A DNA stretch of 32,000 bases from Flavobacteriaceae bacterium (GTDB lineage Bacteria > Bacteroidota > Bacteroidia > Flavobacteriales > Flavobacteriaceae), in the NCBI GenBank assembly GCA_965224465.1, contig OZ245049.1, positions 1,290,001 to 1,322,000 of the forward strand, in the 5' to 3' direction. Within the stretch, counting starts at the first letter, position 1. Every line of letters starts with the position of its first letter. Below are positions 5,638 through 24,767 of this stretch, piece by piece. Below the pieces are notes generated by a model, which ran no database searches, had not been told where the DNA came from, and saw only the letters and a list, made by a program, of their open reading frames with translations. A program made the position numbers and the translations under genes.

Positions 5638-7101
5638 ATGAAAAAAATAATCTATTTCTTAACCGCTTTCCTCTTGATGATAGCTCTTAAAAGCTGTAAC
5701 GAGGATACATTTATGCCCAACACGGATCCTGAATCCTATGGCAATCCAGCAGACTTATTATATGCAGATATATTAAACGCTAGAGAATATAGTAAACTAA
5801 AATCTGGAATACCACATGTAGACACCAATCAACTAATTCCTACCTACCAACTAATATCTGGTAAAGATAAAGACGGAAAAGCATTGGACGAAACTTATAT
5901 GAGTGACGTTTCTATAGACAATGCAAGTATAAAAAGCGATAAAATAAATTACAGTACCGCTGGAAGAATTACGATTGCTGATGGTAATAAATTTGGTACT
6001 GGAGAATATTTCTTTACCATTAAGGTAAGTACAGAATTGAACGGGGTAAAACACGAAACTACATTTGAAGATGTCTTTCATATACAAGTAGGTCCACAGT
6101 TGGTAAAAGACTTGCTGTACTCCCCTATTGCACAAAATTTAATAATAGGAACAGACAAAACAACTACAAAACCATACTTATTATCTGGAAATCCAGCTGT
6201 TTCTTTTGCTTTAAAAAGTCATAATGACATCTTAAAAATTGACGCAAAAACAGGTATTATTTCCTTAGTAGATGGGTACACAATTACAGAAAACCAAACC
6301 ATCTTCCCTAAAGTAGAAGTAACCAGTAATATGAGCAGTGAAACCACAGAGTTTCAAGGAGACAGTTTCTTGATGATTGTAATTTCTAACAGTCCTGTAG
6401 ATTTACCTAAAAAAACAATCTTCTTTTTTTACCCAACACTTCAAGCAGAAAACACCTTATACGGTTATAGAAAAGACATTATTTCTGCTGGAGATGTAAA
6501 ATATGCAAAAACATGGATGCAATCAGCGCCATCAAACATCGCAGTTTCAGAACGTCCAGAAGATGTAATAGGCGCCAAATCATTATTTACCAATGTCGTA
6601 CTTGGAGGGTGGTCTAATCCACATGAATCAGATGTGATTATCAATTCTCAAGATTTGACTAAATACAGCCTAGGCTATAATGTTTCCACTGTATTTTACA
6701 TAAAAAACAAATACGTAGAATACTTGGCTGACGGACGTACACCTACAGATTTAGAAGTGTATTACTCGACAGATTACGATGGGAATAATAGTGCTGCATC
6801 TTGGACAAAAATCAATGATCAACTTCGCTGTTCTATCAATGGGAAAGGAACTCCTTTTACAGGAACCCCATATCCAGGTGATCAGAAAAAAGCAGATCCA
6901 GACACTAAGAAAAACAGCAGTAGAAATGCAGATTCCAAATGGGTAAAGTGTGAATTTGATTTAAATAATTTCAAATCAGAAAAAAGTTTTACACTAAAAT
7001 TCAAATTCGCTTCTTATTATACAGGAGCTATCAAAGGAGCTAAAGGACGTGGCGGTAGATATTACATCTCTGACGTACACTTTAAAGCCTCTGAGGAATA
7101 A
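5638..7101 (+). CDS. Hypothetical surface lipoprotein, candidate surface glycan-binding protein
   Basis: 487-aa ORF with a signal peptide and lipobox (LMIALKSC). The Cys is followed by acidic NED, which resembles the Bacteroidota surface-export signal. No catalytic motif was recognised. The stop lies 32 nt upstream of the susC-like start. Confidence 0.5.
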   Translation: MKKIIYFLTAFLLMIALKSCNEDTFMPNTDPESYGNPADLLYADILNAREYSKLKSGIPHVDTNQLIPTYQLISGKDKDGKALDETYMSDVSIDNASIKSDKINYSTAGRITIADGNKFGTGEYFFTIKVSTELNGVKHETTFEDVFHIQVGPQLVKDLLYSPIAQNLIIGTDKTTTKPYLLSGNPAVSFALKSHNDILKIDAKTGIISLVDGYTITENQTIFPKVEVTSNMSSETTEFQGDSFLMIVISNSPVDLPKKTIFFFYPTLQAENTLYGYRKDIISAGDVKYAKTWMQSAPSNIAVSERPEDVIGAKSLFTNVVLGGWSNPHESDVIINSQDLTKYSLGYNVSTVFYIKNKYVEYLADGRTPTDLEVYYSTDYDGNNSAASWTKINDQLRCSINGKGTPFTGTPYPGDQKKADPDTKKNSSRNADSKWVKCEFDLNNFKSEKSFTLKFKFASYYTGAIKGAKGRGGRYYISDVHFKASEE

Positions 7102-7133: not shown

Positions 7134-10100
7134 ATGAAAAAAATATTTTATATCGTACTATTGCTCACAATTATGCCTTTTGTTGCTTTTGCACAAAATA
7201 GCGTGAGCGGTACAGTAACTGACACCAACGGAGAACCAATCCCTGGTGTGAACGTCCTGTTAAAAGGAACCGCTATAGGAACAAGTACTGACTTTGATGG
7301 TTTGTACAAAATAGAAAGCACGAAGTCTACGGATGTATTAGTTTTTAGCTACCTAGGATTTACCACTACCAACGAGTTGGTAGGAAATCGTACAGAGATA
7401 AACATTCAATTAAAAGCTAGCAACGAACAATTGGACGAGATTGTCATCATAGGATATGGATCTGTTCGTAAAAAAGACCTCACGGGCTCTGTCGCTAAAA
7501 TATCGAGTGATGATTTAATAAAAACAGCTACTACCAACTTTGACCAAGCCTTGGCAGGGAGAGTTTCTGGAGTACAAATTTCTTCTGTAGACGGAACACC
7601 AGGAGAAGGATTAAATATTACCATCCGTGGAGGGAACTCTATCACAGGTGATAATTCTCCTTTATATGTAATCGATGGAATTCCTTTAGATAATTTTGAT
7701 CCAGGAAGCATCAGTACAAACGACATTCAAAGTTTTGACATTCAAAAAGATGCATCTGCCACTGCTATTTACGGATCTAGAGCGGCAAATGGGGTTATCT
7801 TAATCACAACAAAGCAAGGACGTAAGGATGGGAAAACAGATGTTAAACTTAGTGTAGCCCACGGAGTACAATGGGTTTCAAATCGTTTAAAAACACTAAG
7901 TCCTTATGAGTATGTAAAATACCAAGAGCAAGCTGCATATGCTATAGACAACTATGTTCCTGGAGAATATGTTGGATATTTTAAAGATTCTTGGATAGAC
8001 CCAGAATTATATCGCACTAAAAAAGGAACGAGCTGGCAAGATGAAATTTTCAGATTTGCAAGCACAGACAAATACAATGCTAGTATTAGCGGAGGTAACA
8101 GTACGACCAATATCTATTTTTCTTCTGAGTTTATAGAGCAAGAGGGAACCATGATTAATACAGGGTATAAAAAAATATACAACAACCTTAAATTTGGACA
8201 TAAGATAAATGATAAGACCAAACTAAATGGGTATTTACAATATACTTTTCTAAACAGAAATGGAATCGGAATCTCTGGAAACTCATATACTTCTGTAATT
8301 AGAGATGCCATACAGTTTAGACCTGTAGAGCCGATAAACAGTGACGGATTAGAACAGGGAGGATATGACCCTACAGATCAAAGTCAGAAATACTTATTTA
8401 ACCCTGTAAAAAACTTAATGAATACCGATCGTCAACGACGCTCTGATATTTTAAGGGGGAGTTTAAAATTAACACATAAATTTAATTCGGACTTCGTATT
8501 AAGACTGTCTGGATCTTACCAAATAGACAGTAGAAAACAAACCTTATTTTTCGGGAAAGATACCCAACAGGGATCTCGTGGAAGTGATCATATTAGTGGA
8601 TCTGTAACAAATAGAAGGTATCAAACACTTTCTTCTTCAAATACTTTATCTTATAGAAAAAAGATTAATCAACATCGTTTCTCCTTATTAGCAGGTACGG
8701 AAATACAAACCAAAGATTACGAATACTCTTGGATGAAAAATTCTGAAATACCATCAGATTTATTCGGTATTAAAAAACTTGGATTGGGTGTTTCTCCTGG
8801 GATTCCACAAACCTCAAATTCTAGGAATGCATTATTATCTTACTTTGGTAGAGTTAACTATAACTTAAGAGATAAGTATCTCTTTACAGCAACCTATCGT
8901 GCAGATGGTTCTTCAAAATTCAATAAGGACAACCGTTGGGGATATTTCCCATCGTTCTCTTCTGCTTGGAAAATTAGCGATGAACAATTTATGAAAGCTA
9001 TACCCGTAATTTCTTTTGCTAAACTTAGAGCAGGATGGGGAATTACAGGGAATAACCGTATTGGAGATTACGATGCTTACAGCCAACTAAACGCAAATAC
9101 TTCTAGCGGATATGTATGGGGCAACGGAGAAAAATACATCCCTGGAGCTTACCAAAGTAATTTAGGTGTTCCTAATTTACGTTGGGAATCTACAGCACAA
9201 TCAAATGTAGGTTTAGACTTAGCGTTCTTAGATCAAAACATAGAATTGACCGTAGATTATTACAACAAACAAACCTCTGATTTATTATTAAATGCAGAAA
9301 TGGCATTGCACACTGGATTTAACAAAGTGCAACAAAACATTGGAAAGGTTGAAAACAAAGGATTGGAAATTGGCTTAAACACAACCAATATAAATACGGA
9401 TAAATTCAAATGGTATTCCTCATTTAACATATCATTCAACAAAAACAAAACGTTGGCATTGAATGATGGTCAAACAGAAATCTTTACAAATCCTAGATGG
9501 AACAACTCTTATTCCGAATACCAATACATCACTCAAATTGGTCAACCTGTAGGAATGATGTACGGATTGGAATTTGACCGCATCTATCAATTAAATGATT
9601 TTAATTGGGATAATGGGTATCAAACATATATTTTAAAAGACGGAGTTCCTGACAATGGCGCTTTACCTGTAGGTCCTGGGAGTGTGAAATTTATAGATCA
9701 AAATGGAGATGGAACCATCAACGAATTGGATAGAAAAATTATTGGAAACCCACACCCAAAACACTTTGGAGGATTTTCTAATACTATAGAATTCGGAAAC
9801 TTTGATGTCTCTGCATTACTACAATGGTCTTACGGATTTGATATTATGAATGCAAACAAAGCGGTATTTGAAGTACCTACCGCAGGGAAACAAAGTGGTT
9901 TTGCAGCCTTGGCAGATGCATGGACTCCACTAAATACAGATACTACTATTGGTGCAGTGCGTTATATGTCTGTTTATGGAGCACCTCCAAAGGGAAACCA
10001 AATGGACGATCGCTATATTGAAGATGGATCTTATTTAAAATTAAAATCAGTTTCTATTGGGTTTAGTCTTCCTGATAACGCGTTAGAAAACATGAAAGTA

Positions 10101-10271
10101 AAAAAATTCAGAATCTATTTAACGGGTCAAAACATATTTACTTGGACAAAATACTCTGGCTATGACCCAGATGTTTCCGTAGGAAAATACGGAGCTTTAA
10201 CACCTCGATTAGACTATTCTGCATATCCTCAAAGCACCACTATAATGGGAGGAATAGACATCACATTTTAA
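7134..10271 (+). CDS. SusC/RagA-family TonB-dependent outer-membrane transporter
   Basis: 1045 aa with a signal peptide. Carboxypeptidase-regulatory-like N-domain (VSGTVTDTNGEPIPGVNVLLKGT...DFDGLYKI), TonB-box region (DEIVIIGYGS), plug motifs (LAGRVSGVQI, PLYVIDGIP, DIQKDASATAIYGSRAANGVILITTKQG), a long beta-barrel and a C-terminal aromatic residue (IDITF). Confidence 0.95.
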   Translation: MKKIFYIVLLLTIMPFVAFAQNSVSGTVTDTNGEPIPGVNVLLKGTAIGTSTDFDGLYKIESTKSTDVLVFSYLGFTTTNELVGNRTEINIQLKASNEQLDEIVIIGYGSVRKKDLTGSVAKISSDDLIKTATTNFDQALAGRVSGVQISSVDGTPGEGLNITIRGGNSITGDNSPLYVIDGIPLDNFDPGSISTNDIQSFDIQKDASATAIYGSRAANGVILITTKQGRKDGKTDVKLSVAHGVQWVSNRLKTLSPYEYVKYQEQAAYAIDNYVPGEYVGYFKDSWIDPELYRTKKGTSWQDEIFRFASTDKYNASISGGNSTTNIYFSSEFIEQEGTMINTGYKKIYNNLKFGHKINDKTKLNGYLQYTFLNRNGIGISGNSYTSVIRDAIQFRPVEPINSDGLEQGGYDPTDQSQKYLFNPVKNLMNTDRQRRSDILRGSLKLTHKFNSDFVLRLSGSYQIDSRKQTLFFGKDTQQGSRGSDHISGSVTNRRYQTLSSSNTLSYRKKINQHRFSLLAGTEIQTKDYEYSWMKNSEIPSDLFGIKKLGLGVSPGIPQTSNSRNALLSYFGRVNYNLRDKYLFTATYRADGSSKFNKDNRWGYFPSFSSAWKISDEQFMKAIPVISFAKLRAGWGITGNNRIGDYDAYSQLNANTSSGYVWGNGEKYIPGAYQSNLGVPNLRWESTAQSNVGLDLAFLDQNIELTVDYYNKQTSDLLLNAEMALHTGFNKVQQNIGKVENKGLEIGLNTTNINTDKFKWYSSFNISFNKNKTLALNDGQTEIFTNPRWNNSYSEYQYITQIGQPVGMMYGLEFDRIYQLNDFNWDNGYQTYILKDGVPDNGALPVGPGSVKFIDQNGDGTINELDRKIIGNPHPKHFGGFSNTIEFGNFDVSALLQWSYGFDIMNANKAVFEVPTAGKQSGFAALADAWTPLNTDTTIGAVRYMSVYGAPPKGNQMDDRYIEDGSYLKLKSVSIGFSLPDNALENMKVKKFRIYLTGQNIFTWTKYSGYDPDVSVGKYGALTPRLDYSAYPQSTTIMGGIDITF

Positions 10272-10301
10272 TTGATTTATCAAAAATTAATAGTAGAAAT
10301 A

Positions 10302-11978
10302 ATGAAAACAAAATATATAAAATACATCAGCTTATTAACCATTTTAGGTTTTTTAAGTATCAGTTGTTCTGATTTTTTAAACGAAGAACCACAATCCACA
10401 TGGGGAGTAGATGATTTCTACAATACCCAAACAGAAGCAGACATTGCTTTGGCAGGAATCTACTCCACGTTTGCCAGCGACCAAGTGTACGGACAAGGAC
10501 TCTCTATTATCATGGAATCTGGAACTGACGAAGGTTACTACAACCGTCGCTACAATGAAAACTGGACCGTGGGTTTATACAGGCACACCTCTTCTGATAA
10601 ATATGTAGCAAACCTGTGGTCAAAATTATACACAGGAATCAACCTAAGTAATATGTTTATTGAAAAGTTAAAGAAAGATGCTTTTGACCAAGAAACATAT
10701 AATCAATTAATTGGTGAAGCTCGATTTTTACGTGCACATGCGTATAGCTTACTTGTAGCTTGGTATGGAGATGTCCCAATGCCTTTGAATTCAACTTTAG
10801 ATCAGAATGCGAACCACTTGGCAGCAACCAATGATGAAGATGTTTATACACAAATAATTGCAGATTTCACCTTTGCTTCTGAACATTTATTAGCCTCAAA
10901 TGACCCAAAGTACATTCCTGGAAGAGCCAGTAAAATGGCAGCTCATGGATTGATGGCACGTGCTTATTTAAAAATGGCAGGTTTCCCAATAAAAGATACT
11001 GAAAAATATGCATTGGCTAAAAAGGAATGTGAAATTATTATTGCAGATGGACATCATAGTTTAAACACTTTTAATGGTGAAGGCTATAGAGCACATTTCC
11101 TAAACTACATACAAAACACCTATGACACTCAAGAATCGCTGTTCGAGATTTCATTCGCTTATTTAAGAGAAATGGGAATTAGTGCTGATGGTAGAATCGG
11201 AGGGATTAATGGCGTTGCCTTTAATTACGGAGGTGGAGTCGATGGATATCCTGGTGCCTACGCTTTAGAAAACGTATCACCATTGTTAAAAAACATATAC
11301 AGTACAGATGACCAACGAAAAGACTGGAATATAGCAGGCTTCCAATACACAAACAAAGGAGACATAAAAGCTGTAACAGATCCGTTATCTGGACAATATT
11401 GCCCTGGGAAATTTAGACGATGGGAACCAGCAAACTGGGACGATTTAACAACAACTCCTGCCGAAGGAGTTACAGAATCTTACACCTTATTAGAGGCGGT
11501 AACCTCTCCTAGTAAAAACTTTACTTCCATCAATTTTCCTGTATTGCGTTATTCAGATATATTGTTAATGTATGCTGAGGCTAGTAATGAAGTAGACGGT
11601 GGACCAAGTGCATTGGCGGTTTCCTACCTAAACATGGTAAGAAATAGAGCTGGCTTAGGAAATATAGAAGATGACAATGCCACAGCTATAGCAAACAAGA
11701 ATAATTTCTTTAACGAATTGGTAGATGAGCGCTTGAGAGAATTCTGTTTTGAAGGATTGCGCAAACAAGATTTAATTAGATGGGAATTATTAGGCACTAA
11801 ATTGCAACTTCAAAATCTAACAATCCAAGGAGAACCAACCTTCAAAAACACCAACGAAAATCACAAAGCATACTTAAGAGCTGGTAACTTTTATGATACA
11901 AGTAAACACAATTCCTTGCCGTACCCATTGCAAGAAATATCTTTAAATAAAAAATTAAACCAAAAGCCAGGTTGGTAA
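10302..11978 (+). CDS. SusD/RagB-family nutrient-binding outer-membrane lipoprotein
   Basis: ATG at 10302 gives MKTKYIKYISLLTILGFLSISCSDFLNEE (lipobox plus acidic residues). SusD-like motifs are present: LRAHAYSLLVAWYGDVPM, RYSDILLMYAEA, ERLREFCFEGLRKQDLIRW. The ORF-track start at 10272 is a TTG directly after the susC stop and is less likely. Confidence 0.93.
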   Translation: MKTKYIKYISLLTILGFLSISCSDFLNEEPQSTWGVDDFYNTQTEADIALAGIYSTFASDQVYGQGLSIIMESGTDEGYYNRRYNENWTVGLYRHTSSDKYVANLWSKLYTGINLSNMFIEKLKKDAFDQETYNQLIGEARFLRAHAYSLLVAWYGDVPMPLNSTLDQNANHLAATNDEDVYTQIIADFTFASEHLLASNDPKYIPGRASKMAAHGLMARAYLKMAGFPIKDTEKYALAKKECEIIIADGHHSLNTFNGEGYRAHFLNYIQNTYDTQESLFEISFAYLREMGISADGRIGGINGVAFNYGGGVDGYPGAYALENVSPLLKNIYSTDDQRKDWNIAGFQYTNKGDIKAVTDPLSGQYCPGKFRRWEPANWDDLTTTPAEGVTESYTLLEAVTSPSKNFTSINFPVLRYSDILLMYAEASNEVDGGPSALAVSYLNMVRNRAGLGNIEDDNATAIANKNNFFNELVDERLREFCFEGLRKQDLIRWELLGTKLQLQNLTIQGEPTFKNTNENHKAYLRAGNFYDTSKHNSLPYPLQEISLNKKLNQKPGW

Positions 11979-12016
11979 TCACATTTTGATTTTAACCTCA
12001 CTTTTCACCTTCATAG

Positions 12017-12048
12017 AATTTATCCCAATATAATTATTGGGATAAATT
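12017..12048 (+). promoter_or_regulatory. Perfect 14-bp stem / 4-nt loop hairpin between the susD-like gene and the enzyme genes (possible attenuator or RNA-stability element)
   Basis: AATTTATCCCAATA (12017-12030), loop TAAT, then TATTGGGATAAATT (12035-12048) with every position paired. No strong T-tract follows. It lies 39 nt after the susD stop in a 128-nt gap. Confidence 0.5.
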
Positions 12049-12106
12049 TAATGATTGATTTACCTCTTTTAATAGAGGGATAGAACTATTAAATGAAAAA
12101 AACTGT

Positions 12107-14752
12107 ATGCATCACTCCATAAAGCACCTTATTTCTTCAACGAGCATTCTGCTAGTAAGATCACACAAAGCACTCTTGATACTTAGCCTATTTATAAGTA
12201 TAACTTCCTGTGATAAAACCACGGATCCTAACTCCTTTAAAAGCAATTTTGAAGACCTTCCTACACGTACTTGGATCGGACCAGAATATTGGGCAAACCC
12301 ATTGCAAGATTGGCATATTGAAAACAACAGAATAGAATGCTTGGTTAGCAATGAAAACCGAAACATTCATCATCTAACACGTCAACTAGGCTCACAAAAG
12401 GGAACCTTAACCATGCAGGTTAGCTTAGGTCTTTTAAATACAAATTTCACGACCAATAGCAACCATTGGGTAGGATTTAGTATTGGTGCACGAGGCGAAT
12501 TTAACGACTTTAGAAACCACGCCGTATTTGGAAAAGGATTGAACATAGGGATCAGTACCAATGGCGCCTTATTTATCGGTCAACAAAATAAAAACAATAA
12601 AAATATAAAAATAATTAAGTCTTTAAAAGAAGGGGTAGATTTACACGTTAGCCTAACTCCTTTAGAAGGTAAATATAAAATAGACCTCTCTGTCTATGCA
12701 ACAAAAAACAAAGAATTATTAGCTAGTATTTCTAAAAGAGATATAGCTCCCGAAAATTTAATCGGAGATCTAGTATTGGTAAGTGATTTTAAAAACGGCA
12801 TCAACAAACGTGTACAAACAAAAAGTGTATGGTTTAAAGACTGGATGATTAAAGGAACTAAAATAGTTAAAAAAGACGCACAACATTTTGGTCCTATCTT
12901 ATTCTCACAATATACACTGAGCAGGAATACCGTAAAGTTGACAGCTCAAATGCCTCCGATAGACCATCCTACAAAAAAAGTAGCACTTCAACTTTTTAAA
13001 AATGATGTTTGGGAAACAATCGCAGAAATGCCTATTGATAAAAGTGCTAGAACAGCCACCTTTAAATTGAATAATTGGGATGATACTGTCGCTGTAAATT
13101 ACAGATTACTTTATAATTTAGACATTGCAAACAACAAAACAAAAGATTGTTATTGGGAAGGAACTATTCGTAAAAACCCGATTGACAAAAAAGAAATTTC
13201 TATTGCTGGATTTACAGGCAACAATGATCTAGGCTTTCCTAATACCGATATTTTCGAAGAAGTAAAATTACAAAATCCAGATATTTTATTCTTTTCTGGA
13301 GATCAAATATATGAAGAAGTAGGTGGGTATTACATACAATTAACTCCCTTAGAACCTTCAAAATTAGATTATTTACGCAAATGGTACATGTTTGGATGGG
13401 CTTATAGAGACATTTTAAAAGATAGGCCTACAGTCTGTTTAACAGACGACCATGATGTTTATATGGGAAATATTTGGGGAGAAAACGGCCGTAAAACACC
13501 CATTACTACAGGACATCGAAAACACATTCAGGATAGCGGAGGATACAGAATGCCTGCTGAATGGGTAAAAATGGTGGAGCGCACGCAAACCAGTCACCTA
13601 CCCGATCCTTATGACCCAACTCCTGTAAAACAAGGAATAGGTGTTTACTATACACAAATGAATTATGGGCACATCAGTTTTGCCATTTTAGAAGACAGAA
13701 AATTTAAATCAGCTCCAAAAGCCTTATTGCCAAATGCAGGAATTGTAAATGGATGGCCAGAGAATAAAGATTTTAACATGGAAAAAGATGGCGATATAAA
13801 AGGAGCACACTTATTAGGTCAACGCCAATTAGACTTTTTAGAAAGTTGGGCAGCAGACTGGAGCTATGGAGCAGAGATGAAAACCCTTTTATCCCAAACC
13901 ATTTTTGCCAATGTTGCTACATTACCTAAAGCCGCCCTATCGGATGTAGTAGTCCCTACCCTACGCATAATGCGCGAAGGAGATTACCCCGTAGATGATC
14001 AACCTGTAGGAGATTTAGACTCTAATGGATGGCCACAAACGGGTAGAAATAATGCTGTAAAAACAATCCGAAAAGGGTTTACTTTTCATTTAGCAGGAGA
14101 CCAACATTTAGGAAGTGTTATCCAATATGGTGTTGACAATTGGAACGATAGCGGCTATGCTTTTTGCGTCCCTTCTATCTCTAATTATTGGCCACGTAGA
14201 TGGTATCCGCAAGCAGGCGGAAAAAACAGGGACGCAAATGCCCCCAAATACACAGGTGATTTTAAAGATGGATTCGGAAATAAATTTACCGTAAAAGCCA
14301 TTTCTAATCCTTTATTTACAGGGAAAAAACCAGCTAAATTATACGACAGAGCAGCTGGATATGGAATTGTTACGTTTAATAAAACCACAAGAAACATCTC
14401 TTTAAACTGCTGGCCACGTGGAAGTAAATCATCCAAAGGAAACAGTGAGCAATATCCAGGCTGGCCCATTACGATAAATCAACTAGATAATTTCACAACT
14501 ACTTTTAACTACCAATTACCTGTGGTAAAAGTAACTGGAATGGAAAATGCGGTCCTTCAAATTATAAATGAACAAACACAGGAAATTGTGTACACAATTC
14601 GCATCAATGGAAGTACCTTTAAACCGATGGTTCCTAGTAAAAACAGCTACCAAATAAAAATTGGAAACCCAGACAGTAAAAAATTCATCATCAAAAAAAA
14701 TATACTGTCACGTTTGACTCCTCAAAGCGAATTAACCTTCGATTTTAACTAA
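12107..14752 (+). CDS. PhoD-like metallophosphoesterase-fold lipoprotein with an N-terminal jelly-roll-like domain
   Basis: 881 aa with lipobox SLFISITSC. Motifs occur in the order typical of alkaline phosphatase D / calcineurin-like phosphoesterases: FFSGDQIYEE, CLTDDHDVYMGNIWGE, ILEDRKFKS, LLGQRQLDFLESW, FHLAGDQHLGSV. The first ~230 aa (WHIENNRIECL...HWVGFSIG...) look like a lectin/LamG-type beta-sandwich. Confidence 0.65.
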   Translation: MHHSIKHLISSTSILLVRSHKALLILSLFISITSCDKTTDPNSFKSNFEDLPTRTWIGPEYWANPLQDWHIENNRIECLVSNENRNIHHLTRQLGSQKGTLTMQVSLGLLNTNFTTNSNHWVGFSIGARGEFNDFRNHAVFGKGLNIGISTNGALFIGQQNKNNKNIKIIKSLKEGVDLHVSLTPLEGKYKIDLSVYATKNKELLASISKRDIAPENLIGDLVLVSDFKNGINKRVQTKSVWFKDWMIKGTKIVKKDAQHFGPILFSQYTLSRNTVKLTAQMPPIDHPTKKVALQLFKNDVWETIAEMPIDKSARTATFKLNNWDDTVAVNYRLLYNLDIANNKTKDCYWEGTIRKNPIDKKEISIAGFTGNNDLGFPNTDIFEEVKLQNPDILFFSGDQIYEEVGGYYIQLTPLEPSKLDYLRKWYMFGWAYRDILKDRPTVCLTDDHDVYMGNIWGENGRKTPITTGHRKHIQDSGGYRMPAEWVKMVERTQTSHLPDPYDPTPVKQGIGVYYTQMNYGHISFAILEDRKFKSAPKALLPNAGIVNGWPENKDFNMEKDGDIKGAHLLGQRQLDFLESWAADWSYGAEMKTLLSQTIFANVATLPKAALSDVVVPTLRIMREGDYPVDDQPVGDLDSNGWPQTGRNNAVKTIRKGFTFHLAGDQHLGSVIQYGVDNWNDSGYAFCVPSISNYWPRRWYPQAGGKNRDANAPKYTGDFKDGFGNKFTVKAISNPLFTGKKPAKLYDRAAGYGIVTFNKTTRNISLNCWPRGSKSSKGNSEQYPGWPITINQLDNFTTTFNYQLPVVKVTGMENAVLQIINEQTQEIVYTIRINGSTFKPMVPSKNSYQIKIGNPDSKKFIIKKNILSRLTPQSELTFDFN

Positions 14753-14759
14753 TACATCT

Positions 14760-17700
14760 ATGAAAAATACGCCTAATTTTATCCGCCTTATCCTCCTCTG
14801 TACGTTCTTGTTTATCGGATGCGCCAATATTGCCCAACAGAGTACACCAGTTATAAAAGACTCTTTTGAAAACACAGCTAGCTTAAACAACTATGAAATA
14901 AAAGGAGAAAGTACATTGCGTATTAGTCAAAAACACCATCAATTTGGTACTTCGTCTCTACAGTGGAAATGGGATGGAAAAAGTAGTTTTGGAACCTCTA
15001 ATTTCACCCATCTTAAATCCAAAGACAGTCCTTTAAAATACGGGCAACACTTTGCCAATAGTCCGACCCTTATTTTATCTATTTACAATGAAATAGCACA
15101 GGATAATAGCATCAAAATTTCTTATGACGAAAAAAGTGTAGAACAGGTTTGGTTTGAATTAAAATTGAATTTTACAGGTTGGAGAACCATCTGGGTTCCT
15201 TTTTATGAAATGCAAGGAAATGCTCCAAAAAAAACAGCATCGGTTGCCTACGATTATTTTAGAGTAAGTACTGTAAATGGTACAAGTAAAGGAAAACTGT
15301 ATTTTGATGATATTATTTTTTCTCAATTTCAAGATGATAGACATGCATATCCAGATATGATGGTTCCTTTTATCAAAAGAGACATCCCTAAAGGAAAAGA
15401 TCATTGGATGCCATTACTTCGAGATTTAAAACGTGTACAACATATTAAAACAACAAAAATTACTCCGATTGAAAAAAGTGATTTAAGTACTATAGAGCAA
15501 AAATTAGATGCTCATTTTTTTGTGAAACCAAAGAAAAACATAGACCTATTAGCAAAAGCAACCCATGCCTACAACTCCTTGCACTTAGATGTTCAAGAAA
15601 CCGTATTAGGGCTTCCTTTGACCTTTAAACTTAATCAAGTTTATTTCCCTAAGAACGACCCCAATAGAAAAAATAATATTCCTATTCAACAATTAGGAGC
15701 CGTATTAAAAAACATAGCCACATGCTATCAACAAAACAATAGTACAATAGAAAAAAAAGCAATTGCCACTATGTTTGTAAATGCTTCCAAATACTATTTA
15801 GATCAAGGGTGGCAACAAGGGTCTTCTGGAGGAACAAGACATCATATTGGATACAATATGCGCAAATTAACAGATGCTTTTTACATGATGAAAACCCCCT
15901 TAAAAGAGGCTGGTTTACTCAACGAAGTAGGAAGCAGTTTGCAATGGATTTTTAACCTAGGAAAAATACTGGGAAACGAAAAAGAGTTCCATGCTAATAT
16001 TGACTATTTCAATACGCAATCCTACTATCATTTAATGCTTATTTTTATGAGTGACAATGGTGCTAAAAAATCGGCGTTATTAAAAGCTTACAGTAATTAC
16101 ATGTCCATTACCTTAGCACAAGATAATGGAATTGGAGTCTTTAAAGTAGACGGCACCTCTTGGCATCACGGAGGGCACTACCCAGCGTATGGATTGGGTG
16201 CTTTTAACAGCGTAACCCCAGTAATTTTTACTTTGGCTGGCACTGCATATAGTATTAGTGAAGCAGGGCATAAGAATTTTAAAAAGGCATTTTTAACCAC
16301 GCGTTTGTACAGCAACTTGTTAGATTATGGATTTGGACTTGCAGGAAGACACCCTTTAGAGGACAATAGCTTTAAATCACTAAAAGACAACTACCTAGAC
16401 ATGATTTTTTCTGGAACCCCAAGTGGTACAGAAAAAATAGACACCGAAGTTGCCGCTGCTTATTTGAGATTGTGGGGGGGAAAAGACAAAAAAAACAGCC
16501 GCTTATTTCATGAGAAATACAATATAGATCCAGAAATTCTAATAGGTTACGACGTGCTTCCTTATGCTGCAACAGCAATACACAGACGTAAAAACTGGGC
16601 CGCATTTATAAAAGGATACAGTAAATATGTATGGGCATCTGAGATTTATGTAGACGAAAACAGGTATGGACGATACCCTTCCAATGGGAGTATCCAAATA
16701 AACAATAACAAAGGAAGTATAAAAAGTGGATTTAAACAAGAGGGATGGGATTGGAATCGCTACCCAGGAACTACCGTAATAGATTTACCTTGGAGTGATC
16801 TAGAACCAAACACTCCTTTATTGATGTTTAGGTCTGAAGAAACTTTTGCAGGAGCAGCTCACCTAGATAACAATGGTGTATTTGGAATGATTTTGAATGA
16901 AAGTAAAGGCTCAAATGCAGATGGCCCAGAAAAAAACATAGGATTCCCGGGGAAGTTAAAAGCATATAAATCTGTGTTTTCTTTTGGAGATAAATTAATT
17001 TGCATCGGAACAGGAATTACGAGTATTGATATGGAGCATCCAGTTCAAACCAACTTATTTCAGAATTACATTCCTAAAACTACCATGCCAATTGCAAGTT
17101 CTAAAAAACAAAATATAACGGAATTCCCGTATCATAATAGTATTTCAGGATCAGGAACCTGGTTGATAGATGCCTATAATAATGGATACCATATTTTATC
17201 CGATAGTCATATTCACTTAAAACGTGCCTCTCAAGATTCTTATCATAATAAATACTCCTTAAAATCAGGTAAAATGAATAAGAAAGGGAGAGGAGCTAAA
17301 GCCACCAAAGGTAATTTCGCTTCGTCTTGGATAGATCATGGAAATGCGCCTAAAAACGCAAGCTATCAATATGTAATTTACCCTGGATTGAATACTCCAG
17401 CCAAGGAACATTTTTCCGAAATGGTTCTAAAAGACAGGTCTTTTAAAATTCTTCGTGCAGATAATACTGCACATATAGTTCTTGATAAAAGCACAAAGAC
17501 TACAGGCTATTGTATATTTAACGCAGAAAAAAACCTAGATGATTCCATTGTTAAGAATGTATCTGCACCATCTATTCTAATGATTAAAAAACACGGTAAA
17601 AACATAGAGATAAGCGCCGTACAACCAGACCTCAACTTTTTAAACGTCAAAGACAAAACATTAAGAGGATATAGCCAGCCCGTAACTTTAGATATTACTA

Positions 17701-17828
17701 TAAAAGGAATATGGAACCTTAAATCTCCCAATAAAAACAGCATCCTTAATCATACAAACAATGAAACAATCATCCATTTAATATGCCAACATGGATTTTC
17801 AAATAGTATTAATTTAATAAAACCATAA
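14760..17828 (+). CDS. Chondroitin sulfate ABC lyase-like polysaccharide lyase (PL8)
   Basis: 1022 aa, the same length class as Proteus vulgaris chondroitinase ABC I. Recalled family blocks are conserved along the whole protein: SLQWKWDGKSSF, KLNFTGWRTIWVPF, DYFNTQSYYHL, DGTSWHHGGHYPAYG (catalytic His/Tyr block), LAGRHPL (Arg), VWASEIYVDENRYGRY (Glu), EGWDWNRYPGTT, GNFASSWIDHGNAPKNASYQYV, AVQPDLN. Lipobox FLFIGC. Confidence 0.88.
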   Translation: MKNTPNFIRLILLCTFLFIGCANIAQQSTPVIKDSFENTASLNNYEIKGESTLRISQKHHQFGTSSLQWKWDGKSSFGTSNFTHLKSKDSPLKYGQHFANSPTLILSIYNEIAQDNSIKISYDEKSVEQVWFELKLNFTGWRTIWVPFYEMQGNAPKKTASVAYDYFRVSTVNGTSKGKLYFDDIIFSQFQDDRHAYPDMMVPFIKRDIPKGKDHWMPLLRDLKRVQHIKTTKITPIEKSDLSTIEQKLDAHFFVKPKKNIDLLAKATHAYNSLHLDVQETVLGLPLTFKLNQVYFPKNDPNRKNNIPIQQLGAVLKNIATCYQQNNSTIEKKAIATMFVNASKYYLDQGWQQGSSGGTRHHIGYNMRKLTDAFYMMKTPLKEAGLLNEVGSSLQWIFNLGKILGNEKEFHANIDYFNTQSYYHLMLIFMSDNGAKKSALLKAYSNYMSITLAQDNGIGVFKVDGTSWHHGGHYPAYGLGAFNSVTPVIFTLAGTAYSISEAGHKNFKKAFLTTRLYSNLLDYGFGLAGRHPLEDNSFKSLKDNYLDMIFSGTPSGTEKIDTEVAAAYLRLWGGKDKKNSRLFHEKYNIDPEILIGYDVLPYAATAIHRRKNWAAFIKGYSKYVWASEIYVDENRYGRYPSNGSIQINNNKGSIKSGFKQEGWDWNRYPGTTVIDLPWSDLEPNTPLLMFRSEETFAGAAHLDNNGVFGMILNESKGSNADGPEKNIGFPGKLKAYKSVFSFGDKLICIGTGITSIDMEHPVQTNLFQNYIPKTTMPIASSKKQNITEFPYHNSISGSGTWLIDAYNNGYHILSDSHIHLKRASQDSYHNKYSLKSGKMNKKGRGAKATKGNFASSWIDHGNAPKNASYQYVIYPGLNTPAKEHFSEMVLKDRSFKILRADNTAHIVLDKSTKTTGYCIFNAEKNLDDSIVKNVSAPSILMIKKHGKNIEISAVQPDLNFLNVKDKTLRGYSQPVTLDITIKGIWNLKSPNKNSILNHTNNETIIHLICQHGFSNSINLIKP

Positions 17829-17830
17829 TT

Positions 17831-19261
17831 ATGAATCGACTTTTTAAAAAAGTGAACTTGTACATTCTATTGGGCTTTCTTTTCCAATATCCTATTTCGG
17901 GGTTTGCACAAGAACAAGACAGACCAAACATTATTTTGATTATGACAGATCAGCACCAAGCTGACGCCTTGAGTATTACTGGAAATACAGATTTAAAAAC
18001 ACCTCATCTAGACGCATTGGCAACATCAGGAATGCGCTTTAAAAAATCTTATGTTACATTTCCTCTGTGTACTCCAGCAAGATCTAGTATTTTCACAGGT
18101 AAAATGCCTCATAATCTAGGCATCAAATCAAACGAAAAAGGAGCTAATTTAATATCTAATACAGACCGGCAACAAATCTTAGCAAAAAAACTAAAAGAAG
18201 CGGGTTACGATTGTGCCTACGGAGGAAAATGGCATGCACATCAAGCTAGTATGGTGGATGGAAATGGCTTTGAAATGATTGCACTTATGGGTGATATTGG
18301 CCTTGCAGAAAAAAGCATTGCTTATATGAAATCTAAAAAAGACTCTCCCAAACCTTTTTTCTTGACCATCTCTTACGACAACCCTCATAATATATGTGAA
18401 TGGGCACGTGATGAACGTTTACCTTACGGAGACATCCCATCAGTAAGCTTATCTGAAACTCCAGCGCTTCCAGTTAATCATCAGCAAACAACAACATTTC
18501 CAGAAGCCGTACGTTTTGAACAACTTGCGAGTAAAAAAATATATCCTACAGAGCATTATGACGATGAAGATTGGAGACACTACAGACACGCCTACTACAG
18601 ACTTGTAGAAAAAGTGGATGCCGAAATAGGTAAAATACTAACAGCTGTTGATGATTTAGATTTACGTAAAAACACATTAATTATCTTTACCAGCGATCAT
18701 GGAGACGGTAACGGGGCACATGGTTGGAATCAAAAAACGGTACTGATAGAAGAAAGCATTCGCGTCCCTTTTATTGTAAGTTTCCAAGGTAAAATCAAAA
18801 AAAACAGCATTAATAACTCACTTATTTCAAACGGATTGGATCTCTACCCTACCTTATTAGACTATGCTAAAATAAAAATAAACCCAGAATTAAAAGGACA
18901 AAGCCTCAAAACAATTTTTGAAAACAACAAGAAACTAGATAGAGACTATGTTGTTATAGAAACAAAATTTGATGGTAAATATGCCTTTGGAACCATGGGA
19001 CGCTCCATCGTTGGGAAACGTTATAAGTACAACGTGTATAACTGGGGAAAAAACCGTGAACAACTATTTGATTTGAAAAATGATCCCTTTGAAATGAATA
19101 ATTTAGCAAAAAACAAAAACTTCTTAAAAACCCTAGATCTGTTTAGAGATCGTTTACATAAATGGTGTATAAATACCGATGACAAAAAGTTTTTAAGAAA
19201 AATTGTATTGCCAAGTACCAGCACCCTAAAAAGTAGCACACTGTTTGACAAACCTTATTAA
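17831..19261 (+). CDS. S1-family (formylglycine-dependent, Cys-type) sulfatase
   Basis: 476 aa with a signal peptide. Motifs: PNIILIMTDQHQADAL, sulfatase signature PLCTPARSSIFTGKMPHN (C-x-P-x-R), FTSDHGDGNGAHG. The start is 2 nt after the PL8 stop. Confidence 0.92.
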   Translation: MNRLFKKVNLYILLGFLFQYPISGFAQEQDRPNIILIMTDQHQADALSITGNTDLKTPHLDALATSGMRFKKSYVTFPLCTPARSSIFTGKMPHNLGIKSNEKGANLISNTDRQQILAKKLKEAGYDCAYGGKWHAHQASMVDGNGFEMIALMGDIGLAEKSIAYMKSKKDSPKPFFLTISYDNPHNICEWARDERLPYGDIPSVSLSETPALPVNHQQTTTFPEAVRFEQLASKKIYPTEHYDDEDWRHYRHAYYRLVEKVDAEIGKILTAVDDLDLRKNTLIIFTSDHGDGNGAHGWNQKTVLIEESIRVPFIVSFQGKIKKNSINNSLISNGLDLYPTLLDYAKIKINPELKGQSLKTIFENNKKLDRDYVVIETKFDGKYAFGTMGRSIVGKRYKYNVYNWGKNREQLFDLKNDPFEMNNLAKNKNFLKTLDLFRDRLHKWCINTDDKKFLRKIVLPSTSTLKSSTLFDKPY

Positions 19262-19445: not shown

Positions 19446-19479
19446 ACCCAATCACTGCATCAAAAGTGATTGGGTTTTT
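19446..19479 (+). terminator. Rho-independent terminator
   Basis: Perfect 11-bp stem ACCCAATCACT / AGTGATTGGGT with an 8-nt loop, followed by TTTTT and preceded by an A-run. It lies 185 nt after the sulfatase stop. Confidence 0.7.
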
Positions 19480-19769: not shown

Positions 19770-20975
19770 ATGAAAATAATCAACCTCTCTATATGCATCC
19801 TTTACATACTTTTATTCAGTGGATGTACTCCTGACGTCACGGAAACTCCAGCTATATTTGTGGAAAAGCAGTTAAAAAATGCGGATGCTCAATTATCATT
19901 ATTACTCGTTGATGCCTTAGCAGAGAACCGCAATCCACGAACTATAGATGCAGAAGGAAAACTACATTGGGTACGTCAAGGATTTGATTGGACAGAGGGT
20001 TTTTTCCCAGGATCAAGTTGGTTTTTATACGACATCACAAAGAATAAAAAATGGAAAGCATCCGCAGAAAAATTTCAGGCACAATACGAAGAACATAAAT
20101 ATTTAACTGGGTTTCACGATTTAGGTTTTATTTTTAACTGTTCGTACGGAAACGGCTACAAAATCACCAAAAACGAAGCATATAAAGCGGTGTTAAAAAC
20201 AGCTTCTGATTCGTTAATCACAAGATTCAACCCTACTGTAGGATCTATTATGAGTTGGGATGTAGACAAAGGATGGCAATCAAAACGAGGCTGGAAATTC
20301 CCTGTTATTATTGATAATATGATGAATTTAGAATTGCTTTTTGAAACTAGTAAAATCACAGGAGATGACACCTACAAAAAAGTAGCTATCGCACATGCTA
20401 ATACAACATTAAAAAATCATTTTAGAGAAGATTACAGTTCGTATCACGTAGTAGATTACGATCCAGAAACGGGAGCTGTTAGGTCTAAACAAACCGCACA
20501 AGGATATGCAGATAATAGTGCTTGGGCAAGAGGACAAGCATGGGCTATCTATGGTTTCACCATGTGTTATCGCTTTACCAAAGACGAAAAATATTTAGCT
20601 CAAGCTCAAAAAATTGCCGATTACATTGTCAATTACCCTGGATTGCCAAAAGACTTTATTCCTTATTGGGATTATAACGATCCTAAAATCCCTAATGCAC
20701 CACGTGATGCTTCTGCGGCAGCAATTACAGCCTCTGCATTGGTTGAATTAAGCGGATACACCCACGGAAAATATATAAAAGATGCTAGAAATATATTAAC
20801 ATCCTTGGCAAGTCCAGAATATACAGCTGCCCTTGGAACAAATAAAAATTTTATTTTAAAACACAGTGTAGGAAGCATTCCTCACAATAACGAAATTGAT
20901 GTTCCATTAAACTATGCTGATTATTATTATATAGAAGCATTGCTCAAATACAAACACTATTACACTAAAAAATAA
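19770..20975 (+). CDS. ugl: GH88 unsaturated glucuronyl hydrolase (unsaturated GAG-disaccharide hydrolase) lipoprotein
   Basis: 401 aa with lipobox LLFSGC. GH88-type blocks are present: DWTEGFFPGSSWFLYD, FHDLGFIF, VIIDNMMNLELLF, WARGQAWAIYGF. Confidence 0.88.
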   Translation: MKIINLSICILYILLFSGCTPDVTETPAIFVEKQLKNADAQLSLLLVDALAENRNPRTIDAEGKLHWVRQGFDWTEGFFPGSSWFLYDITKNKKWKASAEKFQAQYEEHKYLTGFHDLGFIFNCSYGNGYKITKNEAYKAVLKTASDSLITRFNPTVGSIMSWDVDKGWQSKRGWKFPVIIDNMMNLELLFETSKITGDDTYKKVAIAHANTTLKNHFREDYSSYHVVDYDPETGAVRSKQTAQGYADNSAWARGQAWAIYGFTMCYRFTKDEKYLAQAQKIADYIVNYPGLPKDFIPYWDYNDPKIPNAPRDASAAAITASALVELSGYTHGKYIKDARNILTSLASPEYTAALGTNKNFILKHSVGSIPHNNEIDVPLNYADYYYIEALLKYKHYYTKK

Positions 20976-24712: not shown

Positions 24713-24732
24713 ATAATTGTCTATTATGATAA

Positions 24733-24767
24733 AAAGGAGTTCCTTAAACTGGGAGCTCCTTTTTTTT
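24733..24767 (+). terminator. Rho-independent terminator at the end of the PUL
   Basis: AAGGAGTTCC / GGGAGCTCCTT forms a ~9-bp stem (one G-U pair) with loop TTAAACTG, followed by T8. It lies ~20 nt after the sulfatase stop. Confidence 0.75.

Follow-up and report, generated by a model that had tools for sequence, protein, structure and literature searches.

A PhoD-like lipoprotein of a chondroitin/dermatan sulfate utilization locus belongs to a sulfatase-coupled family and may remove a phosphate-containing ester from sulfated glycans

A 32,000-nucleotide stretch of a Flavobacteriaceae genome (assembly GCA_965224465.1, contig OZ245049.1, positions 1,290,001 to 1,322,000 of the forward strand), here called the window, contains a polysaccharide utilization locus (PUL) that encodes a predicted lipoprotein related to the alkaline phosphatase PhoD and to purple acid phosphatases (PAPs). 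The open reading frame (ORF), taken from the ORF list and its translation, specifies 881 amino acids plus a stop codon. It is preceded by susD and followed, 7 nt past its stop, by an ORF assigned to polysaccharide lyase family 8 (PL8) because Lyase_N, Lyase_catalyt, and Lyase_8 all match. An initial annotation, made from the letters alone, had placed the gene between susD and a glycosaminoglycan (GAG) lyase with this spacing; that placement holds, and the gene is an operon member in a GAG PUL. The lipoprotein signal, the lectin-like N-terminal domain, and the metallophosphoesterase motifs that it described are likewise recovered (Table 1). The initial annotation also remarked that phosphatases are absent from described GAG PULs, and the Bacteroides thetaiotaomicron PUL for chondroitin sulfate (CS), dermatan sulfate (DS), and hyaluronic acid (HA) indeed has none.

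The genes of the block lie on the + strand in the order hybrid two-component sensor (HTCS), a 487-aa protein, SusC, SusD, PhoD-like protein, PL8 lyase, S1 sulfatase, GH88, DUF4955 protein, CBM96 protein, and a second S1 sulfatase (Table 1). The block is a CS/DS PUL, and the PhoD-like gene is one of its members. The HTCS gene occupies a matching position in four loci of relatives (L001, L003, L008, and L010), and the stand-alone CBM96 protein is also kept in L001/2 and L010. The DUF4955 protein is presumably PL29-like. The conserved protein encoded between the HTCS and SusC genes gives only a weak N-terminal match to DUF5016. No β-galactosidase, saturated β-glucuronidase, or xylosidase that would serve the proteoglycan linkage region is encoded in the window PUL.

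Terminator-like hairpins occur on the + strand only after the first and after the last sulfatase gene, and no strong terminator was found between susC, susD, the PhoD-like gene, the PL8 gene, and the first sulfatase gene. A sigma-70 promoter scan returned fewer sites than shuffled controls. The 128-nt spacer between susD and the PhoD-like gene (11979-12106) folds at -29.8 kcal/mol (z -4.4 versus shuffled sequences) into a structure with a prominent hairpin, and a hairpin lies at the equivalent place in L010, L008, L001, and L003. The stem in L010 and L008, compared with that of the window, shows a paired change, ATCCCAAT/ATTGGGAT against ATTCCAAT/ATTGGAAT. This hairpin may be an attenuator or an RNA-stability element that separates susCD expression from that of the downstream enzymes.

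Pfam PhoD (PF09423) matches residues 381-692 of the whole protein with a score of 37.3 bits (gathering cutoff 27, E = 2.3e-9), a weak match that rises to 39.7 bits when the isolated core is searched alone. The initial annotation had proposed this profile search together with two others; PhoD was matched, and PhoD_N and Metallophos were not. NCBIfam gives no meaningful match to the protein, and the isolated lectin-like, Fn3-like, and C-terminal parts match no Pfam family. Sequence searches of Protein Data Bank (PDB) chains with phmmer and hmmsearch, using the single protein and two family profiles, returned no match at E <= 10. Because these searches gave nothing relevant, the residue equivalences to PhoD used below rest on motif order and on the published description of PhoD. 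The full-length AlphaFold (AF2) model has a predicted local distance difference test score (pLDDT) of 83.9 and a predicted template-modeling score (pTM) of 0.85. It comprises four parts, and its best overall Foldseek match is the sweet-potato PAP 1xzw. A separate model of residues 256-800, built on 67 diverse sequences, reaches a pLDDT of 95.1. Its only significant Foldseek matches in the PDB are a purple acid phytase (6git, 3.6e-12) and 1xzw (4.6e-12), with template-modeling (TM) scores of 0.45-0.57 and identities of 9-10%. Because these matches were obtained on a model with a pLDDT of 95, the predicted PhoD/PAP-type fold is a sound assignment; the protein is far from every solved structure and carries large insertions. 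The PhoD call is not a chance match. Structure prediction, a second check that the initial annotation had named, recovered the PAP-like fold; by alignment, the metal site is noncanonical at the position of one Fe3+ ligand (Gly371). The homologue alignment places many invariant residues in the lectin-like domain, and these, together with the high pTM, suggest that this domain is integrated with the catalytic core in the modeled protein. The lipobox cysteine is at least 90% conserved among homologues, and inspection of the translated N-terminus revealed no twin-arginine motif.

Table 1. Features of the PhoD-like protein, of the window PUL, and of selected loci of relatives (coordinates without a prefix refer to the window; those with an L prefix refer to the locus named).
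Feature	Position	Strand	Basis or remark
PhoD-like lipoprotein gene	12107-14752	+	ORF; Pfam PhoD, 37.3 bits; >3,293 full-length homologues
Signal peptide ending in lipobox SITS-C35	12107-12211	+	read from the translation
ConA/legume-lectin-like β-sandwich, ~aa 40-255	12224-12871	+	AF2 model; Foldseek matches to arcelin, legume lectins, and Emp47 (probability 1.0, TM(target) ~0.5)
Fn3-like β-sandwich before the core, as in PAPs, ~aa 256-365	12872-13201	+	all-β in both models; within the 6git/1xzw alignment
PhoD/PAP-type metallophosphoesterase core with large insertions, ~aa 366-795	13202-14491	+	Pfam PhoD; pLDDT 95.1; Foldseek
Motif I, F-T-G371-N, right after strand 1; Gly at the place of the PhoD Fe3+ ligand Cys-180	13211-13222	+	alignments
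GDQIYEE, aa 398-404; D399 and Y402, equivalents of the bridging Asp and Fe-tyrosinate of PhoD/PAPs	13298-13318	+	
DDHDVYMGNIWGE, aa 447-459; D447, D448, H449, D450, and N455, putative equivalents of PhoD D265, D266, H, and N271/N272 (Ca2+ ligands)	13445-13483	+	motif order
EDRKFKS, aa 529-535; R531, K532, and K534, conserved basic residues	13691-13711	+	
LLGQRQLDFLESW block, aa 569-581	13811-13849	+	
DLDSNGWPQ; D636 and D638, conserved acidic residues, candidate metal ligands	14012-14038	+	
HLAGDQHLG, aa 661-669 (GDQHLG, 664-669); D665 and H667, putative equivalents of PhoD D436 and the next His	14087-14113	+	
C-terminal β-sandwich, ~aa 796-881	14492-14749	+	secondary structure of the full-length model
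HTCS, presumed PUL regulator	1024-5133	+	Pfam Reg_prop, Y_Y_Y, HisKA, HATPase_c, Response_reg, HTH_18
487-aa protein	5638-7101	+	
SusC	7134-10271	+	Pfam Plug, CarboxypepD_reg
SusD	10272-11978	+	Pfam SusD_RagB, SusD-like_3
Hairpin in the susD/PhoD-like spacer	12011-12054	+	20-nt arms
PL8 lyase with Lyase_N (chondroitinase-ABC-type architecture)	14760-17828	+	Pfam
S1 sulfatase, S1_9-like	17831-19261	+	best PDB matches, 2-O GAG sulfatases 5g2t and 3b5q
Terminator-like hairpin after the first sulfatase gene	19446-19475	+	
GH88 unsaturated glucuronyl hydrolase	19770-20975	+	Pfam
DUF4955/pectate-lyase-fold protein	20979-22532	+	Pfam
Free-standing CBM96 protein, 195 aa	22547-23134	+	between the DUF4955 and 4-O-sulfatase-like genes
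S1 sulfatase, S1_27-like	23141-24712	+	best PDB match, endo-4-O-sulfatase 6s21
Terminator-like hairpin after the last sulfatase gene	24731-24764	+	
Sulfatase/PhoD-like fusion P0139	L091:8001-11972		
Sulfatase/PhoD-like fusion P0142	L090:1441-5265		
Sulfatase/PhoD-like fusion P0189	L092:3724-7245		
Small hydrophobic protein	L004:9615-10004		
Small hydrophobic protein	L011		
Small hydrophobic protein	L014:9567-9950		
Small hydrophobic protein	L016:9642-10013		
Small hydrophobic protein	L028:12637-13044		
Small hydrophobic protein	L075:9588-9965		
PhoD-like, DUF5077/DUF3472, GH2, S1 sulfatase module	L013:9965-18822		also in L014 and L075
Second metallophosphoesterase (Pur_ac_phosph_N + Metallophos), 451 aa	L047:4620-5975		Bacteroidales
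ECF-sigma-factor/FGE-sulfatase-domain protein	L048:12644-14935		also in L042 and one further Planctomycetota locus

A key question is whether the metal site of the window protein is that of an active enzyme. PhoD of Bacillus subtilis contains a tyrosinate-ligated Fe3+ and two Ca2+ ions. Its Fe ligands are those of PAPs except that Cys-180 takes the place of an Asp, and a second PhoD subfamily retains the Asp; the substitutions C180A, D265A, N271A, N272A, and D436A each abolish activity (PMC4223295). Every motif quoted in the initial annotation (GDQIYEE, DDHDVYMGNIWGE, EDRKFKS, LLGQRQLDFLESW, and GDQHLG) is present in the window protein in the order given there. Ligand conservation was scored in two sets, 120 close homologues and 150 sequences that each represent a 50%-identity cluster. 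Eleven ligand-equivalent residues (D399, Y402, D447, D448, H449, D450, N455, D636, D638, D665, and H667) are invariant in the close homologues and 88-99% conserved in the representatives, with D399 and Y402 at 94% or above. The residue at the place of Cys-180 is glycine in the window protein and in 120/120 close homologues; among the cluster representatives it is Cys in 68 and Gly in 61, so that ~45% of the family clusters are Cys-type and ~40% Gly-type. Trp, found at this position in about 10 of the 150 representatives, is a third variant. Only T/S370, S/A690, and S/A397 covary with Gly versus Cys at position 371, and none of them is an obvious metal ligand. The strong conservation of the eleven residues rules out a decayed pseudoenzyme, and as judged from these alignments the Gly type is an evolutionarily stable variant of the site. 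The protein thus appears to lack one defining feature of PhoD and PAPs, the Cys or Asp Fe ligand, with the other ligand equivalents kept.

Comparison with characterized relatives places the protein between two groups. Like B. subtilis PhoD, it matches PF09423; has the GDxxY, DDH(D/E)...N, and GDxH motifs with their Ca2+-type, Asp-rich ligand equivalents; is predicted to adopt a PAP-like fold; and is exported. Unlike PhoD, it has Gly in place of Cys-180, is 881 rather than 583 aa long (the mature PhoD construct spans residues 57-583; PMC4223295), and carries a lipoprotein Sec signal instead of a Tat signal. It is encoded in a PUL/HTCS rather than a Pho context, and it has added lectin-like, Fn3-like, and C-terminal β-sandwich domains as well as long insertions. 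With the plant PAPs and phytase (1xzw and 6git), it shares an Fn3-like domain that precedes a metallophosphoesterase core, as well as the Asp/Tyr pair at the Fe site. However, their His2-Asp-Asn divalent-metal set (GNH[DE] and GHxH) is replaced by PhoD-type Asp-rich motifs, and the first Asp ligand is absent. The full PAP set of seven invariant ligands (in GDxG, GDxxY, GNH(D/E), VxxH, GHxH) therefore does not describe this protein, in which motif I reads FTGN, motif III DDHD, and motif V GDQH. Because the Cys/Asp Fe ligand, the PAP ligand set, and the Tat/Pho context of canonical PhoD all fail, we assign the protein to a distinct, uncharacterized clade within the PhoD superfamily whose architecture, ligand set, and biological context are all new.

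The family is large: the candidates scored include more than 3,293 homologues, and clusters (50% identity) number 2,092 at E <= 1e-3 and 621 at E <= 1e-30. The 552 matches confirmed in species-representative genomes are mostly ~860-900 aa long and 43-86% identical to the window protein, which is unusually strong conservation for a PUL enzyme. Its members come from at least six phyla (Bacteroidota, Planctomycetota, Acidobacteriota, Gemmatimonadota, Calditrichota, Latescibacterota, and others) of marine, sediment, and soil habitats and are annotated publicly as "alkaline phosphatase D family protein." Most of them (in Planctomycetota, Acidobacteriota, and others) occur without SusC/D.

Synteny with GAG-degrading genes, which the initial annotation had named beforehand as a test, is kept in seven loci that carry PL8, GH88, and/or DUF4955 genes along with sulfatase genes. 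These GAG-type loci, whose PhoD-like proteins are ~61-86% identical, are the window, L001/L002, Tamlana L003, the metagenome-assembled genomes (MAGs) L008 and L010, Wocania L088, and Maribacter L089. PL8 is present in six of the seven; L001/2 has DUF4955 lyase-like genes instead. Gene order around the PhoD-like gene varies among them, and in L088 and L089 it runs GH88, sulfatase, PhoD-like, PL8, DUF4955, sulfatase, so that the PhoD-like gene is not beside susD. Relatives with ~58% identity are found in lyase-free PULs of Arenibacter, Aureibaculum, Flaviramulus, and Aquimarina and as a second Wocania paralogue. A typical layout of these PULs is SusC, SusD, two sulfatases, a small membrane protein, and the PhoD-like protein; another is HTCS, PhoD-like protein, DUF5077/DUF3472, GH2, sulfatase, and sometimes GH95. 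Wocania ichthyoenteri encodes two paralogues on one scaffold, one in the GAG PUL (L088) and the other in a DUF3472-GH2-sulfatase locus (L013), indicating PUL-specific roles. A recurrent module in L013, L014, and L075 consists of the PhoD-like gene, a DUF5077/DUF3472 gene (~450 aa), a LacZ-type GH2 gene (~1,100 aa), and an S1 sulfatase gene, with GH95 added in L075.

These gene orders bear on whether the protein is an enzyme or a noncatalytic surface glycan-binding protein (SGBP) for which the core is merely a scaffold. A lipoprotein gene directly after susD occupies the usual SGBP slot, the lectin-like domain and the loss of the canonical Fe ligand would suit such a role, and the B. thetaiotaomicron CS/DS/HA PUL encodes the SGBPs BT3329 and BT3330 (PMC6994673). 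However, the gene lies between a sulfatase gene and PL8, away from susD, in L088 and L089; most family members have no SusC/D to accompany; the eleven ligand-equivalent residues are constrained even across phyla; and the protein is found fused to an S1 sulfatase with a formylglycine (FGly)-type motif, as described below. We consider an SGBP role very improbable.

In at least six phyla the family is coupled to S1 sulfatases, which are its only recurrent neighbors. A sulfatase gene lies no more than three genes away in 33 of 82 nonredundant loci. In 80 species-representative loci, sulfatases account for 13.5% of the genes within two positions of the PhoD-like gene versus 1.8% of those at five or more positions (odds ratio 8.4, Fisher p = 1e-7), an enrichment of ~7-fold. 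Among 113 adjacent neighbors that are not sulfatases, any one Pfam family is seen three times at most, and there are no Pho-regulon genes. LacZ-type GH2 enzymes are encoded near family members in nine loci. The Pfam PhoD match and the public annotation would by themselves suggest a general Pho-type alkaline phosphatase or phosphodiesterase that scavenges phosphate and entered the PUL by chance. Such a protein would hardly show the conserved, co-oriented placement in PULs, the local enrichment of sulfatases, and the fusion to them in three lineages. The absence of Pho-regulon neighbors, of a Tat signal, and of the Fe ligand essential in PhoD further argues against a scavenger, an explanation to which we give almost no credence.

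Three ORFs encode fusions of an N-terminal S1 sulfatase to a complete lectin-like/PhoD-like protein. They are divergent (34-40% identical to one another), each is an uninterrupted ORF, and the three contigs come from different metagenome samples. Their sulfatase parts carry an FGly-type motif, C-x-P-x-R in two (CAPSR and CSPSR) and CSASR in the third, and they fall in clusters A and D, subfamilies that are elsewhere encoded next door. As Rosetta-stone evidence from sequence, these fusions argue that the PhoD-like protein and S1 sulfatases act jointly on one substrate. Cys-type and Gly-type cores both occur in fusions and beside sulfatases.

The partner sulfatases, which NCBIfam could not subtype, were typed by best PDB match in clusters A, B, C, and F, with cluster D and several singletons outside the typing. 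Cluster A (13 loci) best matches an S1_16 κ-carrageenan sulfatase, cluster B (12 loci) 7ana (1e-180), cluster C (6 loci) S1_8A, and cluster F (5 loci) an S1_19 exo-4S sulfatase. The depositors named 7ana an N-acetylgalactosamine-6-sulfatase; we take it to be BT1622, an S1_20 3-O-sulfatase. The genes often follow the order B, C, A, PhoD-like, F (L025, L031, L038, L018, L004, L009, and L077), and this multisulfatase block is common to Bacteroidota and Phycisphaerae. Its target is probably a multiply sulfated polymer of galactose (Gal) and N-acetylgalactosamine (GalNAc).

Three further kinds of neighbor were noted. A hydrophobic protein of 123-135 aa without a Pfam match, read by eye as a membrane protein with ~4 transmembrane segments, is encoded near the PhoD-like gene in six loci (Table 1). 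Its gene is directly upstream in five of the six, with its end overlapping the PhoD-like start codon in four, and just downstream in L028; it is absent from the GAG-type locus of the window. In L047, from a Bacteroidales MAG, a gene for a second, different metallophosphoesterase directly follows the PhoD-like gene and precedes three S1 sulfatase genes. In three loci the PhoD-like gene adjoins a gene for a protein of ~760 aa in which regions 2 and 4 of an extracytoplasmic function (ECF) sigma factor are fused to an FGE-sulfatase domain.

Taken together, we favor, with a probability of roughly 0.4, the interpretation that the window protein is a hydrolase, coupled to sulfatases, that strips sulfated glycans of a phosphate-containing ester. 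We propose an exported lipoprotein hydrolase of the PhoD/PAP superfamily that is predicted to be active and would be dedicated to sulfated-glycan catabolism rather than to phosphate starvation. It would act in sequence with exo-sulfatases on the same oligosaccharides. Hydrolysis would be carried out by metal-activated water at a PhoD-like polynuclear center, probably rich in Ca2+, in which the third metal site is altered. The substituent removed would be an anionic phosphate-containing mono- or diester that otherwise blocks exo-sulfatases, GH88, and lyases, and the lectin-like domain would supply glycan recognition.

This assignment is ranked first because all characterized relatives are phosphoesterases and because PUL-encoded glycan phosphatases exist. 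The relatives comprise PhoD, Streptomyces phospholipase D (PLD), PAPs, and phytase, and some are specialized, for teichoic acid or phospholipid (PMC4223295). B. subtilis PhoD itself acts on a glycopolymer, teichoic acid. The PhoD-type PLDs of Streptomyces chromofuscus and Streptomyces avermitilis (structure in PMC13435022) illustrate a scaffold specialized to a particular phosphodiester and not to general scavenging; they differ in having a lipid substrate and in lacking a lectin-like domain or a PUL context, and the S. chromofuscus enzyme retains the Cys Fe ligand (PMC4223295). BT2630 and BT3783, from yeast-mannan PULs, are PUL enzymes that take a charged ester off the target glycan and thereby let glycosidases act, which is the logic proposed here (PMC4978465). 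However, they belong to another structural class, act on another glycan, and are not coupled to sulfatases; BT3783 is a Mg2+ enzyme that its authors overlaid on tyrosyl-DNA phosphodiesterase (PMC4978465). Marine polysaccharides with both sulfate and phosphate have been mentioned (PMC12594817).

Several points weigh against this proposal. The genomic coupling places the enzyme in a sulfatase pathway without identifying the ester that it cleaves. The Fe3+ ligand whose replacement by Ala abolishes the phosphatase activity of PhoD is absent (Gly371). A literature search that combined PhoD or metallophosphoesterase with PULs, sulfatases, chondroitin, and GAGs gave no paper on the PhoD-like family. 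Finally, besides xylose-2-O-phosphate, we know of no phosphate substituent on CS/DS, the evident substrate of the window PUL.

That single exception underlies the initial annotation's own suggestion, a phosphatase that clears xylose-2-O-phosphate from the GlcA-Gal-Gal-Xyl linkage region (glucuronic acid, two galactoses, and xylose) of proteoglycans, which is a special case of the phosphoesterase proposal. To our knowledge this group is the sole phosphate ester on CS/DS chains, and the conserved synteny with GAG-degrading genes is consistent with such a substrate. So are the GH2 β-galactosidases near family members in nine loci and the S1_16- and S1_19-like partner sulfatases, since S1_16 and S1_19 sulfatases act on Gal-4-sulfate and linkage-region Gal can bear 4-O- or 6-O-sulfate. 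However, the linker would be unusable, because the glycosidases that it requires (β-galactosidase, saturated β-glucuronidase, and xylosidase) are absent both from the window PUL and from the sampled parts of the relatives' GAG loci. The loci with GH2 have no lyases; they carry the fucosidase GH95, a CBM32-type (F5/8 type C) domain, and 7ana-like and S1_8A-like sulfatases, none of which fits the linker. The linker is also a tiny share of GAG mass, and the family occurs in phyla of the sea, sediments, and soil, Acidobacteriota and Gemmatimonadota among them, where selection by proteoglycan linkers is improbable. The idea is weakened further in that most family members are encoded away from GAG loci, with S1 sulfatases rather than lyases as their constant partners. 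We therefore regard a linkage-region phosphatase as unlikely; xylose-2-O-phosphate is one candidate substrate and not the favored one. The fallback offered by the same annotation, in which the fold serves as a sulfo- or phospho-(di)esterase for a modified polysaccharide, is favored as closer to the evidence because of the coupling to sulfatases.

The main alternative to the phosphoesterase, the sulfur counterpart of that fallback, is a formylglycine-independent, metal-dependent sulfate-ester hydrolase that takes the sulfate left by its S1 neighbors, most likely the 6-O-sulfate of GalNAc or Gal. CS breakdown in B. thetaiotaomicron requires S1_27 (4S), S1_9 (2S), and S1_15 (6S) sulfatases, and because GH88 accepts substrates that carry 6S but none with 2S or 4S, 6S is removed last (PMC6994673). 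The last of these steps, catalyzed by the S1_15 GalNAc-6-O-sulfatase BT3333 of the B. thetaiotaomicron CS/DS/HA PUL (PMC6994673), is the sole catalytic step of the described CS pathway without a gene in the window PUL. The window sulfatases best match 2-O (S1_9-like) and endo-4-O (S1_27-like) enzymes, no S1_15-type gene is present in the PUL, and S1_15 is the best match of none of the sulfatases typed in GAG-type loci. The PhoD-like protein is the only conserved enzyme of these GAG-type loci that lacks an assigned step, and 6-sulfation is prominent in marine CS. In non-GAG loci, the partner sulfatases read as 2-O, 3-O, and 4-O enzymes, with S1_15/S1_11 as best match in 0/4 typed clusters. The fusion to an S1 sulfatase would suit an enzyme for desulfation at two sites, as would a site that has lost the canonical Fe ligand and retained the rest. 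An Alteromonas PhoD hydrolyzes p-nitrophenyl sulfate weakly (PMC12594817).

Other observations weigh against this sulfatase assignment, which we consider less likely than the phosphoesterase. The sulfatase rate of PhoD is ~1,000-fold below its phosphoesterase rates, and the 2025 paper that reports it describes only trace activity (PMC12594817); as of 2021, no sulfatase activity had been reported for PhoD (PMC8528806). SulfAtlas comprises families S1-S4 only (PMC9825549). BT3333 is a formylglycine sulfatase of the alkaline-phosphatase superfamily, whereas no Sulfatase domain (PF00884) is matched in the window protein; any equivalence between the two is conjectural. The genome may simply encode an S1_15 enzyme outside the PUL, as B. 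thetaiotaomicron does with BT1596, and the typing of sulfatases near the gene left out cluster D and several singletons. The Gly change is not specific to the sulfatase context, because sulfatases adjoin or are fused to Cys-type as well as Gly-type members. We also know of no calcineurin-like, PhoD, or PAP-fold enzyme that is a physiological sulfatase. A more far-reaching form of the same idea, which we hold still more tentatively, is that the family would constitute a fifth class of carbohydrate sulfatase, new in structure and built on a PhoD/calcineurin-like scaffold around a polynuclear metal center; in marine CS PULs it would replace S1_15.

The unusual ligand set, the large conserved insertions, and the tightly packed, highly conserved lectin-like domain could also reflect a different chemistry, such as breaking a bond of desulfated sugars that is not an ester (a glycosidic bond, for instance) or a part in sulfatase maturation or maintenance. 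Sulfatase-glycosidase fusions do exist, for example, 6hr5, a "rhamnosidase/sulfatase" among the PDB matches of the first window sulfatase, and FGE-sulfatase-domain proteins adjoin the gene in three loci. However, the residues that are conserved are the very ones with which PhoD hydrolyzes phosphoesters, and we know of no precedent for such chemistry in the superfamily. A function of this kind appears quite unlikely. The phosphate-starvation scavenger, the pure SGBP, and the sulfatase maturase were set aside on the grounds of conserved PUL placement, constraint on the ligand residues, and the PhoD-type nature of those residues.

Our preferred assignment as a sulfatase-coupled glycan phosphoesterase and the sulfatase alternative have different consequences for how sulfated glycans are thought to be degraded. 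These glycans, among them animal GAGs, mucins, and the galactans of algae, are a major reservoir of carbon both in the sea and in the gut, and current models of their degradation contain only lyases or glycosidases plus S1 sulfatases. A widespread, highly conserved, sulfatase-coupled family labeled "alkaline phosphatase D" suggests an undescribed step in sulfated-sugar breakdown. If the enzyme removes a phosphate-containing substituent, then sulfated glycans bear a widespread modification that has been overlooked. If it removes sulfate, it would represent a new sulfatase class, and a concrete hole in the pathway, GalNAc-6-O-desulfation, would be filled. In either case, this family is probably counted among the "PhoD" genes from which metagenomic studies infer marine phosphorus cycling, and such counts would need correction.

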